Part shown: in pieces, positions 1,778-10,470 of the stretch
How the letters are laid out: the number at the start of each line of letters is the position of its first letter
How positions within the stretch are numbered: position 1 is the stretch's first letter
From: an uncultured archaeon
Lineage (GTDB): Archaea > Asgardarchaeota > Lokiarchaeia > Sigyniarchaeales > Promethearchaeaceae
DNA: 19,221 nucleotides
Direction: 5' to 3'
NCBI GenBank assembly: GCA_964426185.1
Contig: CAYRPF010000067.1
Coordinates: forward strand, 1-19,221
Made by a program: the position numbers and the translations under genes
Notes under the pieces: generated by a model
Databases searched by the model: none
What the model was told of the DNA's origin: nothing
What the model saw: only the letters and a program-made list of their open reading frames with translations

Positions 1778-2878
1778 TTAACTTTTTTTCATTTTAGATT
1801 TCAATTTCTTATTATTTCTCCCAAATGGAATTAACTTCCGAGGATCATAAGCTTCTAATCCTTCCCAAACAGCCGAATAAACGCTTTCTGTAAATTTAAA
1901 CCCCAAATTGCGGATCTTCTCGGAAACATATTCATAAGAGAATTCCATATATTCCAAGGCTGTTGGAGACAAAATAGTTTGAGTGAACTCAGATTTCTGG
2001 CCGCAAAATCGAATAAAGGTTAGCAACGGCTTGAACATCAAAAAAAGCCATAATGGAATATTAAACTTGGGCGGAGGTCTTTGATAATACTCTGCAACGA
2101 TATTGAATAATTGATAAAAATTCCAAGGCTCATGTGCAATATTGAATGCTTGCCCGGAATATGAATTCCCATTTTTCACTAAAAATACTTGAGCTCTTGC
2201 TACATCGCGTGCAGCAGTTAATGAAATTTGACCTTTCCCATGGTTGATAAGTTTTGGCAGGGGAAGGGCAAATGCATGAGTCAGAGAAGGAATCATCTGT
2301 CGATCGCCCTTTCCGATGATGGGTCCAAGTCGAGTAATTAAGAATGATTTAGAAGGATAGGAAGCTGCAAATTTTTTTACCAGATCTTCAGCCAATCGTT
2401 TGGTAACTGCATATGGGACATCTTTTCCCTTTTCTTTAGCACCGATGGGAGATTTTTCAGTAAATTTTATCACCTTATTGCGTTTTCGCAGATTTTTATG
2501 GTCATAAACGATAATACTGGAAGTGTGGATAAAAGTCTTGGCAGAAGAATCACAGAAGGCCTCCAACAAATTTTTAGTACCGAGGACGTTAGTGCGGTAC
2601 ATTTCATCAAAAGATGAATGAACCGAAACACAAGCGGCGAGATGAAAGACAAATTCCACCGTATACTCTTGAAAGATGCGAGAGAGAATTTCTTTGTCAG
2701 ATAAATCACCTTGAATTATTTTTACACCTAAACTTTGAAGATCTATCGCTTTGGCAGGAGTTCTCACCAAACATATGAGGTCTTCATGAGAACTTAGGTG
2801 AATATGCTTTTGTTCCAGCAGATATTGAACCAAGTTACCTCCGACTAGTCCTGTTGCGCCAGTTACAAATATTGCCAT
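1778..2878 (-). CDS. Extended SDR, NAD(P)-dependent epimerase/dehydratase / 3beta-hydroxysteroid dehydrogenase-like
   Basis: TGATGLVG Rossmann motif, GDLSD, FHLAA, NVLGT, HTSS and catalytic YAVTK (YxxxK); hydrophobic IPLWLFLMF patch near the C-terminus as in 3beta-HSD/NSDHL/HpnA-like enzymes. Exact substrate not determinable. Confidence 0.8.
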   Translation of the reverse strand: MAIFVTGATGLVGGNLVQYLLEQKHIHLSSHEDLICLVRTPAKAIDLQSLGVKIIQGDLSDKEILSRIFQEYTVEFVFHLAACVSVHSSFDEMYRTNVLGTKNLLEAFCDSSAKTFIHTSSIIVYDHKNLRKRNKVIKFTEKSPIGAKEKGKDVPYAVTKRLAEDLVKKFAASYPSKSFLITRLGPIIGKGDRQMIPSLTHAFALPLPKLINHGKGQISLTAARDVARAQVFLVKNGNSYSGQAFNIAHEPWNFYQLFNIVAEYYQRPPPKFNIPLWLFLMFKPLLTFIRFCGQKSEFTQTILSPTALEYMEFSYEYVSEKIRNLGFKFTESVYSAVWEGLEAYDPRKLIPFGRNNKKLKSKMKKS

Positions 2879-2956
2879 AATTGTCAGAATCCTATCGTTT
2901 CCTTCAGCATCAAAGAAGTTATAAGCGAAATCGGATGTTTCCAGCCGATTTAAGGC

Positions 2957-2983
2957 AAATCTACATATTTTTTATGTAGATTT
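2957..2983. promoter_or_regulatory. Perfect 11-bp inverted repeat (AAATCTACATA-N5-TATGTAGATTT), putative operator in a divergent promoter
   Basis: Read directly: arms 2957-2967 and 2973-2983, mid-way in the 171-bp gap between divergent genes. A second, imperfect repeat (AAATCGGATG-TTTC-CAGCCGATTT) lies at 2928-2951. Function is inferred. Confidence 0.5.
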
Positions 2984-3049
2984 AAGAATTTCCTTCCCGA
3001 TAGCATTATTAAAGAGGAAAGCCTCCATTAAATATTGTATTATTTTTAG

Positions 3050-3844
3050 GTGGAGAAAATAGTGAATATTTTTGGATTTTTAGGATTTAATGAGTCTTTG
3101 TTTCATGAAATTTTAAAATACACAATGATAGGACTCGGAGTTATCGTTTTTATTATGCTTTTCTTCATCACTGCAGGATATGGTAGATATATTGATAAAA
3201 AGTGGGGGCCACAAATAAATAATAAACTGGGTTGGTTTATAATGGAGACAGTTCCCCCTATACTCTTTTTTATTTTTTTCATTATTAGTGATCGTAAAAC
3301 TGAATTGATTTATCTCGTATTTTTAGGAATTTGGGAAATCCATTATGTTCAGCGGGCTTTTATATATCCTTTTTTAATTCGTGGTAATAAAAAGATGCCC
3401 TTAACCATAATAGCAATGGGGATAACATTTAATGGTTTGAATGCTTACATCCAAGGCCGCTATCTTTTCTATATTATGCCCGGATATCCCGAAAATTGGC
3501 TAATCTCGCCTTTTTTTATCATCGGAACGATAATTTGGATTTGTGGATTTATTATTAACATCTATTCTGACTATATTTTAAGAAATTTAAGAGAACCAGG
3601 AGAAAACGGGTATAAAATCCCTTATGGGGGGCTTTTTCGATTTGTATCATGCCCAAATTATTTAGGAGAGATTCTAGAATGGATTGGTTGGGCCGTTCTG
3701 ACTTGGAGCATTTCTGGTCTTGTATTCGCGCTTTGGACCATTGCAAATTTAATACCCCGTGCAATTTCACACCACCGATGGTATCACCAACATTTTGAAG
3801 AATACCCCCAAAATCGAAAGGCAATCATCCCGTTCATACTTTAA
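3050..3844 (+). CDS. 3-oxo-5-alpha-steroid 4-dehydrogenase (steroid 5-alpha-reductase, SRD5A1/2/DET2-like), integral membrane
   Basis: AGYGRY, WFIME, HYVQRAFIYP, SDYILRNLR, GYKIPYGGLFRFVSCPNYLGEILEW and NLIPRAISHHRWY..F.EYP.NRKAIIPF are SRD5A-family signatures; multiple hydrophobic segments; GTG start. Confidence 0.92.
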   Translation: MEKIVNIFGFLGFNESLFHEILKYTMIGLGVIVFIMLFFITAGYGRYIDKKWGPQINNKLGWFIMETVPPILFFIFFIISDRKTELIYLVFLGIWEIHYVQRAFIYPFLIRGNKKMPLTIIAMGITFNGLNAYIQGRYLFYIMPGYPENWLISPFFIIGTIIWICGFIINIYSDYILRNLREPGENGYKIPYGGLFRFVSCPNYLGEILEWIGWAVLTWSISGLVFALWTIANLIPRAISHHRWYHQHFEEYPQNRKAIIPFIL

Positions 3845-7899: not shown

Positions 7900-8433
7900 C
7901 TAAATTGTATTTCTATCAATCATAAGTTCAGAAATATTAGTAAAAGATTGAGCCACATTCAGTCCAGTTTTGGATGAAACTTGAATATATCCCGCCAATT
8001 TATGTCTTTCAACGAAAGCATCAATATCTTCTCGAGCTACTGAAAATGGATGCCCTTCATCAATCAAATCATGTTTTGAAGATAAAAGTAAAATGGGAAT
8101 ATTTTTAGTGTTTGACCGCACGATTTCAATCCACTCATCTAATTCGTGGAAAGTTACAGGTCGTAAAGGATCAAAAAGCATCAAACACCCGCTGGCACCA
8201 AGACAAAAACTAGGGAGCAACGATCTAAACCTCTCTTCACCCCCGAAATCCCAGATCTGCAAGGTTACATTTTGTCCTTTTTCTGTTTTACATTGGGTTA
8301 CGCTAAAGTCAACACCGATAGTCATTTTTGTGCTACCACTGAAAAGCCCCGTTGTATAACGCCTTAGGAGAGTAGTTTTTCCAGAACCGCCCGATCCGGC
8401 AATGATTAATTTAAAGAGATAGTTACCCGTCAT
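7900..8433 (-). CDS. Rab-like Ras-superfamily small GTPase (eukaryotic signature protein type)
   Basis: YLFKLII, G1 GSGGSGKT, TIGVDF, LQIWDFGGEERFRSL, G4 SKHD, G5 SSK; no C-terminal Cys motif. ATG 8433 preferred over TTG 8454. Confidence 0.9.
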   Translation of the reverse strand: MTGNYLFKLIIAGSGGSGKTTLLRRYTTGLFSGSTKMTIGVDFSVTQCKTEKGQNVTLQIWDFGGEERFRSLLPSFCLGASGCLMLFDPLRPVTFHELDEWIEIVRSNTKNIPILLLSSKHDLIDEGHPFSVAREDIDAFVERHKLAGYIQVSSKTGLNVAQSFTNISELMIDRNTI

Positions 8434-8614
8434 TTTTTTCCCCAAAGTTTTCAATATTTATGTGGTGGACTAATATGATTATTTGTTGTTTTTATGTTAA
8501 ATTTCTTATGCTTTAGGATTTTCGATGGAATATTAAATTAACTTTTGCCTTCAGCTTTTGCAAGGCAATGCATCAAATTATTTTTTAAAGTTATACGATA
8601 CATTCGTTCTAAGC

Positions 8615-8965
8615 CTAAGCACAATCTTTGAAATCCCTCCCCATTAGTCGGAAAAGTTCTGCTCGCTTCCAAACACGCCCAATGGGATTGTGGAAATTAC
8701 ATATAACGCACATCTTAATAGATTTAGAGATAGTAGCGGCTTCAATGGCTTCAAAATCCATAGTATAATAATTTTCTTCACATTTCAAAGAGATAGTGAT
8801 AAGTTGACGCCTATTATCAGTTACTGAGTTGTCAAACAAGTTGAAGACTGCATCATAATAAGGTGGTGGAATTAAAGTATAGCCATAAATCCCGTGTTTG
8901 GCTCGATTTTGAACTGCTTGTTGAATTGGAGCAGCTTGTTGAATTGGAGCGGGACATTCGAAAAA
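8615..8965 (-). pseudogene. Decayed PatB/MalY-type PLP-dependent C-S lyase/aminotransferase remnant
   Basis: F.CPAPIQQAVQNRAKHGIYGYT and Y.MDFEAIE..CNFHNPIGRVWKRAEL match the PatB/MalY N-terminal half. The WVADM start, the GVV..GD..PVY segment and the PLP-lysine half are absent. Boundaries approximate. Confidence 0.75.
8916..8950. repeat. 17-bp direct repeat with an 18-bp period (GCTTGTTGAATTGGAGC x2)
   Basis: Exact copies at 8916-8932 and 8934-8950, giving APIQQA-APIQQA in the remnant. Confidence 0.9.
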
Positions 8966-8994
8966 TTGAAATGTTTTGGAGAGTAAATTCTTAT

Positions 8995-10470
8995 ATGGGA
9001 ATTCAACAAAAATCATATGCTTTCAGACAGAAAGTGTCCGCCGATAAAGGGTGGGTATTAACTTTTGATGATGTTATTTGTTTACCTGGATATACTGATT
9101 TTCTCCCTCATGAATGTGATATTGCAACAAATTTAGGCCCTTTTCATTTTGAAAGCCCGATTATCACGGCAGCTATGGATACAGTTACAGAGACACAAAT
9201 GGCAATTGCAATCGCGCGAGAAGGTGGTTTAGGTGTTTTACATAGAAACTGCAGCTATGATCGCCAACTTGAGATGGTAAAGAAGGTTAAGCGGGCACGC
9301 AGTTTTATTATCGAAGATGTAGCCACTGTTTCACCTGATATGACAATTCGTGAAGTTATGCAAAAAATGAAAGAAAAGGGCATCAGCGGTTTCCCAGTTA
9401 TTGATGCCAAAAAAAAGGTGATAGGAATCATCACTTCCCGCGATATTCCTTTTGATCCCGATTTTGAAGGAACCGTAGATCAAGTTATGACAAGAAATCC
9501 AGTATGCTTGCCCGCTACAGTTTCCCGTGAAGAAGGTTTGAACAAATTATACGAAATCCGAAAGGAAAAAATTCCATTGGTGGATGACGATGGCATTTTA
9601 GTAGGTTTAATTACCAAAAAAGACTTGAAACCAACCTATCCTTACAGTTCAAACGATGATAAAGGACGATTGCTTGTAGGATTAGGATGCAGCCCTTTTC
9701 TCCCAAAAAACCAAGATGATTTGGAAACCTTGAAGCAAGCTGCAGCATTAGCAGATATAATGATGACTGATGTGGCAGAATTTTATAAAAAGGCAGATAT
9801 GGTGGCAGCAAAGGAATTAATGAACACTTTAGACTCCAAATTTGTCCTTGGAAATATAGGAACCTATGAGGCTGCCGAAGCCATACTTACATATGATTAT
9901 CCTGAAGATAAATTTATTGGAATTAAAGTGGGAATGGGCTCGGGTTCAATTTGCACCACTTCTATTCAAACTGGCGTCGGAGCACCGACTTTATTTGCAA
10001 CTTCTGAGGTAAAAGATGCTATTATGGATTACAATCCTAAAATGGGATTAATAGCAGATGGTGGATTCAAATATCCCGGTGATCTTGTCAAAGCCTTCGC
10101 AGTAGGAGCAGATATGATAATGTCGGGGCACTTCTTTGCTGGGTGTACCGAATCTCCTGGTTATATTGATACTGTTAAGGGTCGTAAAGTCAAAGTTTAT
10201 CGAGGTATGGGAAGCGCCGAAGCCCGTGCAGTTGGATCCTACGCTGATGACAGATATATCAAAGAATCCAAAAAACTCGCTGAAGGTGTTTCTGGCTATG
10301 TAAGTTTCTTAGGACCGTTAAAAGGGGTATTAGACCAACTTCATGATGGTTTGAAAAATGGTTTAATCTATGGTGGAGTAAAATCCATTAAAGATGCTCC
10401 AAAAATTCGTATGGCCCGTATTACGACTTCTGGGGCAACAGAAGCCCATCCACATGATTTAATTAGCTAA
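8995..10470 (+). CDS. guaB: Inosine-5'-monophosphate dehydrogenase with CBS pair
   Basis: LTFDDV, AAMDTVTE, GGLGVLHRN, CBS domains, catalytic GSGSICTT, IADGG, YRGMGS, flap RY dyad, AEGV. Start moved from 8863 to ATG 8995 because the upstream part is antisense to the PatB remnant and GGAG lies just upstream. Confidence 0.93.
   Translation: MGIQQKSYAFRQKVSADKGWVLTFDDVICLPGYTDFLPHECDIATNLGPFHFESPIITAAMDTVTETQMAIAIAREGGLGVLHRNCSYDRQLEMVKKVKRARSFIIEDVATVSPDMTIREVMQKMKEKGISGFPVIDAKKKVIGIITSRDIPFDPDFEGTVDQVMTRNPVCLPATVSREEGLNKLYEIRKEKIPLVDDDGILVGLITKKDLKPTYPYSSNDDKGRLLVGLGCSPFLPKNQDDLETLKQAAALADIMMTDVAEFYKKADMVAAKELMNTLDSKFVLGNIGTYEAAEAILTYDYPEDKFIGIKVGMGSGSICTTSIQTGVGAPTLFATSEVKDAIMDYNPKMGLIADGGFKYPGDLVKAFAVGADMIMSGHFFAGCTESPGYIDTVKGRKVKVYRGMGSAEARAVGSYADDRYIKESKKLAEGVSGYVSFLGPLKGVLDQLHDGLKNGLIYGGVKSIKDAPKIRMARITTSGATEAHPHDLIS

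Follow-up and report, generated by a model that had tools for sequence, protein, structure and literature searches.

A divergent gene pair for an extended SDR and an SRD5A-family reductase in an Asgard archaeon is an ordinary member of a widespread prokaryotic module

A stretch of 19,221 nucleotides from an uncultured archaeon of the Lokiarchaeia (GenBank assembly GCA_964426185.1, contig CAYRPF010000067.1; the whole stretch is called the window below) carries, head to head, a gene for an extended short-chain dehydrogenase/reductase (SDR; protein P0001) and a gene for a membrane reductase of the steroid 5-alpha-reductase family (SRD5A; protein P0002). We found that the same two kinds of gene are kept together in several Asgard genera, form operons in many bacteria and are fused in two proteins. 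The window pair is thus a sound, ordinary member of a widespread prokaryotic SDR plus SRD5A module. Our preferred reading, which we hold at a probability of roughly 0.55, is that the two enzymes are a functionally coupled, accessory lipid-reducing pair, whose substrate is most probably a steroid-like or isoprenoid lipid that is exogenous or non-essential, and not a sterol made by the cell itself.

Results

The gene pair and its host

The initial annotation of this DNA had described an SDR gene and an SRD5A-family gene lying head to head over 171 bp, and both open reading frames (ORFs) are indeed where it had placed them:

1778-2878, minus strand: extended SDR (P0001, 366 aa), Pfam families PF01370 and PF01073
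2879-3049, no strand: divergent intergenic region of 171 bp, with an 11-nt inverted repeat inside
3050-3844, plus strand: SRD5A-family membrane reductase (P0002, 264 aa, GTG start), Pfam family PF02544

The genome to which the window belongs as contig C67 (G000) has 3.26 Mb and is 92% complete. Its attribution to a probable Asgard archaeon was borne out by the nearest proteins, which come from Promethearchaeota / Candidatus Harpocratesius, and by a Ras-family GTPase encoded in the window.

P0002 is a Met-type member of the SRD5A family

P0002 scored 193.6 bits on the Pfam family PF02544 (Steroid_dh; cut-off 22.6). With HMMER it matched PbSRD5A (structure 7c83) over P0002 residues 24-263 (E 2.2e-73, 250 bits), human SRD5A2 (7bw1) over nearly the full length (E 3.1e-50, 175 bits) and the structure of a TECR homolog (E 3.4e-17, 66 bits). 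The two motifs to which a catalytic role had been ascribed initially, WFIME (62-66) and HYVQR (98-102), are present, and in the HMMER alignments with 7bw1 and 7c83 the residues E66 and Y99 align with E57 and Y91 of SRD5A2. Across 120 homologs of P0002 the residues E66, Y99, R102, D174, R181, E207, R237 and Y245 are invariant. All NADPH-binding residues listed for SRD5A by Han et al. (PMC7815742) are kept in P0002: N170, D174, R181, N203, E207, R237, H241 and Y245 are the counterparts of N160, D164, R171, N193, E197, R227, H231 and Y235 of SRD5A2.

A feature overlooked in the initial annotation is the residue preceding the catalytic Glu, which is M65 in P0002 and Gln in the published Q-E-Y motif. 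M65 is invariant in the 120 nearest database homologs and in the 80 genomic loci described below; among the best 150 representatives at 50% identity the position is occupied by Met in 96, by Gln in 26, by Phe in 7 and by Leu in 2. The named Q- and F-type proteins are almost all eukaryotic (fox SRD5A2, Galdieria, Cyanophora, chytrids, a diatom), one Q-type protein being from a Marinimicrobia bacterium. Since Phe stands here in the named chytrid and diatom proteins, the position is variable within the SRD5A family. The conservation of Met and the mostly eukaryotic origin of the Q- and F-types place P0002, as judged from its sequence, in a distinct, mostly prokaryotic Met-type ('MEY') subfamily of the SRD5A1/2-like group; the named eukaryotic matches to P0002 (36-43% identity) bear SRD5A1/2-type names.

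Longer forms of the reductase were also seen (P0243-P0249): some of 527-528 aa have an uncharacterised C-terminal half, others of 583-599 aa are fused to a PCMD 'putative carbohydrate metabolism' domain.

P0001 is an extended SDR on the HpnA/SdmB side of the family

The best Pfam family of P0001 is PF01370 (118 bits), not PF01073 (74.8 bits), with PF07993 at 75.6 bits. The Rossmann motif TGATGxxG (residues 6-13; T6-G7-x-x-G10-x-x-G13) and the catalytic tetrad N97/S120/Y156/K160 are invariant or nearly so in an alignment of 50 sequences, and the AlphaFold2 model has a mean confidence (pLDDT) of 94.5. In the same alignment R39, which follows beta-strand 2 directly, is invariant. By the usual coenzyme rule of SDRs an Arg just past beta-strand 2 goes with NADP(H), so P0001 is probably NADP(H)-dependent and more likely to be a reductase in vivo. 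Hydropathy marks a hydrophobic helix at about residues 274-292, which may contact the membrane.

The top NCBIfam matches of P0001 (HpnA, thioester reductase, OleD) all lie far under the cut-offs. Its orthologs form a tight, nearly all-Asgard clade with one Bathyarchaeia entry, extending to about E 1e-56, after which the values drop sharply to about 1e-23; beyond this drop come proteins annotated as hopanoid-associated sugar epimerase (HpnA) or dihydroflavonol reductase. A Foldseek search with the model returned generic extended SDRs, mostly nucleotide-sugar enzymes, with TM-scores of 0.65-0.73, and did not discriminate the substrate. The best curated models of the bacterial SDRs that are partners of SRD5A genes (see below) are HpnA and SdmB, at 230-270 bits on both, SdmB being a dehydrogenase/reductase of sterol C-4 demethylation. 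P0001 is 24-30% identical to these bacterial partners, and on a profile hidden Markov model (HMM) of them it is the top ORF of G000 (108 bits; runner-up 69). In the SDR tree the P0001 clade (support 99, starred) joins HpnA-named and bacterial partner SDRs with moderate support (82-83), apart from the RmlB (481 bits on TIGR01181) and GalE-like paralogs of G000. Grouping with nucleotide-sugar epimerases, which had been named beforehand as evidence to the contrary, was therefore not seen. The original description of P0001 as an extended SDR similar to 3beta-hydroxysteroid dehydrogenase (3beta-HSD) agrees with the Rossmann motif, the tetrad and the kinship to HpnA and SdmB; PF01073, however, is not the best family, and the curated cut-offs are not reached.

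In some lineages a HAD-family hydrolase accompanies the Asgard-type SDR, either as part of the same protein or encoded just after it (P0141; L010:7203-7805; L012:7178-7909). We considered a HAD phosphatase as a third member of the module and rejected it: the P0141 fusion and the L010 neighbour represent a single lineage, the HADs encoded close to the SDR in L012 and close to SRD5A in L014-L016 are of different subfamilies, and G000 has no ortholog.

The pair is kept in several Asgard contexts

The head-to-head pair is found in G000, in a second genome of the same genus (G001), in three further genomes of the host family f1 (G011, G012 and G013) and on two metagenomic contigs (L010 and L011), in three flanking contexts; it is kept by six of the seven members of the starred SRD5A clade that includes the window. 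The flanks in G011 and L010 differ entirely from those of the window. On L011 an IS605 OrfB/TnpB (Cas12f-like) gene is inserted between the SDR and SRD5A genes (L011:4458-5777). Examination of synteny across Asgard genomes, which the initial annotation had proposed, thus showed adjacency in several genera and contexts.

A 3.8-kb contig labelled as Spirochaetes bacterium (L027, QNBI01000289.1) also carries an Asgard-type head-to-head SDR/SRD5A pair. On the Asgard SDR HMM its SDR reaches 505 bits, and its reductase nests in the window's clade; a misbinned Asgard contig or a recent transfer is the probable cause. Directly downstream of SRD5A, G011 (L019:9073-10413) and G010 (L021:8240-9601) encode a protein of 446-453 aa with weak ThiI-ferredoxin/THUMP matches. 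The two copies, from two genera, are 38% identical (E 4e-96); in the window no such gene adjoins SRD5A.

A repeat search found a perfect 11-nt inverted repeat between the two genes (2957-2967 / 2973-2983), with the core TCTACATA-N5-TATGTAGA. G001 retains the core palindrome; in G011 the same half-sites make up a rearranged one. The perfect palindrome occurs twice in the 3.26-Mb genome, in the window and on contig C79 (2047-2067; L108), there preceding an M28 peptidase ORF by about 17 bp. Because there are 125 half-sites genome-wide, two perfect palindromes are far above chance, and the palindrome at 2957-2983 may be a common operator, i.e. a candidate regulator binding site. Its regulon was discarded as a clue to the substrate, the M28 peptidase behind the other perfect copy being uninformative in this respect.

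Operons and fusions in bacteria

A scan of one genome per species yielded more than 590 relatives of P0002, and the gene neighbourhoods were read in the best 80 loci. An extended SDR gene directly adjoins the reductase gene in 30 of these 80 loci, and in 27 of the 43 that belong to the bacterial clade. In all but two of these 27 pairs (25) the SDR gene is upstream on the same strand, mostly with an overlap of a few bases. The bacterial pairs span at least eight phyla (Chloroflexota, Myxococcota, Hydrogenedentota, Poribacteria, Bdellovibrionota, Bacteroidota, Actinomycetota, Pseudomonadota), and in neighbour clustering of the 80 loci the extended SDR was the sole neighbour recurring across lineages. 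Among the bacteria with the operon are cultured ones: Polyangium fumosum DSM 14668, Sorangium and Luedemannella helvata. Two proteins, P0241 and P0242 (570 and 600 aa, 45% identical to each other over the full length), are SDR-SRD5A fusions of the Met type, one of them confirmed on a 225-kb contig.

The occurrence of the pair between unrelated flanks in G011 and L010, the bacterial operons and the fusions argue for a functional link rather than mere synteny, and the SDR and SRD5A genes very probably form a functional pair. The results therefore bear out the two-enzyme module of the initial annotation as far as the pairing is concerned; they do not support a sterol or the cell's own polyprenol as its substrate, and the pair is not peculiar to Asgard archaea. 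Prediction of a P0001-P0002 complex gave a score of 0.00, which we count neither for nor against binding.

In P0241 and P0242 the linker (about residues 300-390), which precedes the first transmembrane helix, is rich in Arg and Pro. A cytosolic SDR at the N-terminus of the fusion would constrain the topology of the membrane domain.

Distribution, phylogeny and triterpenoid capacity

Of the 201 Asgard genomes sampled, 42 yielded the reductase, as did 10 of the 59 genera. Its presence varies within genera: several genomes gave no reductase although they are 98-100% complete and other members of their genera carry it. The P0001-type SDR is rarer (5 of the 201 genomes, in families f1 and f29). The reductase is thus accessory in Asgards and often occurs without a P0001-type SDR.

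In the reductase trees, which cover Asgard, bacterial and named eukaryotic sequences, the Asgard reductases and a Spirochaetota subclade form one clade (support 96-98, starred) inside the prokaryotic Met-type group (support 93). Named eukaryotic sequences fall outside this group in a quick, poorly resolved tree, and a separate bacterial Met-type clade, apart from Asgard archaea and eukaryotes, was not rejected by the approximately unbiased (AU) test (p 0.49). A 2025 study lists the SRD5A1 family as archaeal in origin (PMC12872463); our trees neither confirm nor contradict this. The suggestion that the pair would be notable in an archaeon near the root of the eukaryotes was not supported, the tree showing no specific affinity to eukaryotes and the pair being widespread in bacteria.

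G000 has no match to the SQS_PSY family and no squalene cyclase above the cut-off. Among ten operon-bearing bacterial genomes, just three have a full-length squalene cyclase, and we therefore gave up the cyclase as a marker of the operon. Together with the result for G000 this means that triterpenoids made by the cell are not the general substrate. Genes for a steroid transporter, isomerase, 5-beta-reductase or side-chain metabolism, and genes for glycosylation or prenyltransferases, were not linked in the window or in the 80 related loci; no steroid or bile-acid genes were seen at the Bacteroidales, Sorangium and Luedemannella loci examined.

Other genes of the window

The remainder of the window encodes housekeeping functions, among them two class-IV aminotransferases (branched-chain amino acid aminotransferases, BCAT), adenylate kinase, large and small subunits of the aconitase family, inosine monophosphate (IMP) dehydrogenase, AICAR transformylase and the Ras-family GTPase. 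The two BCAT genes are tandem paralogs (1-651 and 673-1740), and the duplication is kept in G001, G010 and L011. The GTPase, a small Asgard-typical Ras/Roc-family protein (7900-8454, minus strand; PF00071, 113 bits), has relatives near SRD5A in L014, L016 and L017. An ORF of 133 aa (8615-9016, minus strand), whose match to class-I/II aminotransferases is fragmentary, overlaps the IMP dehydrogenase ORF (8863-10470, plus strand) at the 5' end of the latter; either it is a gene remnant or IMP dehydrogenase starts further downstream.

Discussion

Proposed reactions

The established SRD5A reaction transfers a hydride from NADPH to the enone beta-carbon, a Glu and a Tyr acting on the carbonyl, and PbSRD5A reduces progesterone in vitro (PMC7815742). 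By analogy P0002, as an SRD5A-type enzyme with seven transmembrane helices, would use NADPH, with Glu66 and Tyr99 polarising the substrate carbonyl, and would saturate the C=C bond in conjugation with this carbonyl; the substrate would be hydrophobic and either an enone of the 3-oxo-delta4 type or a 2-enal. P0001, probably NADP(H)-dependent and membrane-associated via its hydrophobic C-terminal helix, would interconvert the neighbouring hydroxyl and carbonyl. It could convert an alcohol to the conjugated carbonyl or, more likely, the saturated carbonyl to an alcohol. The unit as a whole would then lead from a conjugated carbonyl lipid to a saturated alcohol, or from an alcohol via an enone and a saturated ketone to an alcohol. 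The initial annotation had proposed oxidation followed by reduction: a two-step redox pair is in keeping with our results, the order less so, because R39 suggests an NADP(H)-type SDR and both steps may be reductions. Our results show the family assignments, the catalytic residues and the conserved linkage by adjacency, operons and fusions; the order of the reactions, the cofactor and the class of substrate we infer. An environmental steroid-like 3-oxo-delta4 compound would be the leading substrate class, because homology points to it on both enzyme sides; acyclic isoprenoid enals would be the main alternative.

Several observations weigh against a coupled lipid-reducing pair. In the window, in G001 and on L011 the two genes are embedded in a longer conserved housekeeping block (two BCAT genes, SDR, SRD5A, adenylate kinase, aconitase-family subunits, a methyltransferase, an HD protein and the Ras GTPase), which, taken alone, suggests mere synteny. 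G010 retains the block and the SDR gene, its reductase gene being relocated elsewhere, and families f3 and f7 have the reductase without the P0001-type SDR clade. A divergent arrangement is also weaker evidence of co-expression than an operon. On the side of the enzymes, P0001 is sub-threshold on HpnA (TIGR03466, 94.6 vs. 367.65 bits) and on SdmB (NF052578, 60.5 vs. 600 bits), and is only a distant relative of the two. The Gln of the QEY motif, the loss of which abolishes the activity of human SRD5A2 (mutants Q56A/L; PMC7815742), is replaced by Met in P0002, and we found no biochemical data for any Met-type member.

Possible substrates

It is possible, though we put it forward only tentatively, that the pair serves sterol scavenging. 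The SDR would be a 3beta-hydroxysteroid dehydrogenase/ketoreductase and the SRD5A protein a 5-alpha-reductase, and together they would convert environmental delta5-sterols or 3-oxo-delta4 steroids to 5-alpha-stanones and stanols. The nearest characterised homologs of P0002, PbSRD5A and human SRD5A2, are steroid 5-alpha-reductases (3-oxo-5-alpha-steroid 4-dehydrogenases), with which it shares whole-length alignment, both catalytic residues (Glu and Tyr) and those that bind NADPH; P0002 differs from them by the Met that is invariant in its subfamily and by having an extended SDR as its partner. For the family of partner SDRs the nearest relatives are HpnA and SdmB, the latter a sterol C-3 dehydrogenase/reductase. 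These enzymes of the sterol and hopanoid pathways share the Rossmann motif and the N-S-Y-K tetrad with P0001, of which HpnA is the top NCBIfam match, but P0001 and the bacterial partners score under the curated cut-offs, P0001 belongs to its own Asgard-centred clade, and squalene synthase and cyclase were not found in G000. The missing squalene enzymes, and the patchy, accessory spread of the genes in sediment archaea and many bacteria, would in turn suit an exogenous compound.

A precedent for such a use reportedly exists in gut Bacteroidetes, in which Sato et al. are said to have described, in 2021, a cluster of 5-alpha-reductase (5AR), 3beta-hydroxysteroid dehydrogenase (3beta-HSDH) and 5-beta-reductase (5BR) for iso-allo bile acids. 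There too a prokaryotic SRD5A-family reductase is linked to a hydroxysteroid dehydrogenase/ketoreductase, and by the logic of that cluster the C=C bond is reduced first and the C-3 carbonyl afterwards. Unlike the gut cluster, neither the window nor the Bacteroidales loci L059 and L091 have a 5-beta-reductase or other bile-acid gene, and in our trees of Asgard, bacterial and named eukaryotic sequences the bacteria that group with the Asgard reductase clade are Spirochaetota, not Bacteroidales. Further points speak against sterol scavenging: the genes for steroid transport, isomerisation, 5-beta-reduction and side-chain metabolism are unlinked in all loci read, the NADP(H)-type look of the SDR suits an oxidative first step poorly, the Met beside the catalytic Glu may mean a different carbonyl substrate, and the activity of Met-type members is assigned by sequence.

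We consider it unlikely, if worth mentioning, that in anoxic sediments the hydrogenation of lipid alcohols of the allylic or delta5 kind is the work of Met-type SRD5A proteins and HpnA/SdmB-like SDRs. In this way stenols could become 5-alpha-stanols, or phytol could become dihydrophytol via phytenal; in archaea dihydrophytol could be salvaged for phytanyl membrane lipids.

That the two genes are neighbours only, by inherited gene order and without a shared pathway, the SDR acting on a sugar nucleotide or an unrelated carbonyl, is improbable in our view. The long block shared by the window, G001 and L011, the retention of this block without the reductase in G010, the generic Epimerase family as best Pfam match of the SDR and the mostly nucleotide-sugar enzymes returned by Foldseek would fit it; they are set against the persistence of the pair in G011 and L010 despite quite different flanks, the operons in at least eight bacterial phyla, the two fusion proteins and the position of the SDR apart from the RmlB and GalE-like paralogs of G000.

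Least of all do we expect a role in dolichol synthesis, in which the pair would be the archaeal counterpart of DHRSX and SRD5A3 and would convert polyprenol via polyprenal and dolichal to dolichol: the three-step eukaryotic route does combine an SDR with an SRD5A-family enzyme (SRD5A3, yeast Dfg10) in a series of allylic alcohol, enal and saturated alcohol (PMC11250103), the enzyme that saturates the alpha-unit of archaeal dolichol is unknown (PMC5088576) and the SRD5A1 family has been listed as archaeal (PMC12872463), but a dolichol pathway would be expected to have a housekeeping distribution. The reductase does not show one: it turned up in just 42 of the 201 sampled Asgard genomes and 10 of the 59 genera, and several genomes of carrier genera yielded none although 100% complete. 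Moreover, many bacteria have the same pair as an operon, and bacteria as a rule use undecaprenol in its unsaturated form; this and the patchy distribution in Asgards argue against an essential dolichol role. Unlike DHRSX, a classical SDR, the partner is an extended SDR; the named eukaryotic proteins matched in our search are of SRD5A1/2-type by name; and glycosylation and prenyltransferase genes are unlinked in the window and the 80 loci. A reading as archaeal sterol or dolichol metabolism is not supported, given the patchy occurrence of the gene, the place of its Asgard clade among bacterial Met-type sequences in a poorly resolved tree, and the missing squalene synthase and cyclase.

Significance

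The window pair offers no evidence for archaeal sterol metabolism, nor for a sterol or dolichol biology peculiar to Asgard archaea. If an accessory lipid-reducing pair is the right reading, the genes represent a widespread, uncharacterised two-enzyme unit that saturates conjugated C=C bonds in lipids and is present in many sediment and soil bacteria and in several Asgard lineages, with parts that current databases label "DUF1295", "methyltransferase" or "epimerase". Identification of the substrate could allow this annotation to be corrected, could link the genes to geochemical hydrogenations such as stanol formation, and could clarify what the prokaryotic relatives of SRD5A did before there were steroid hormones.

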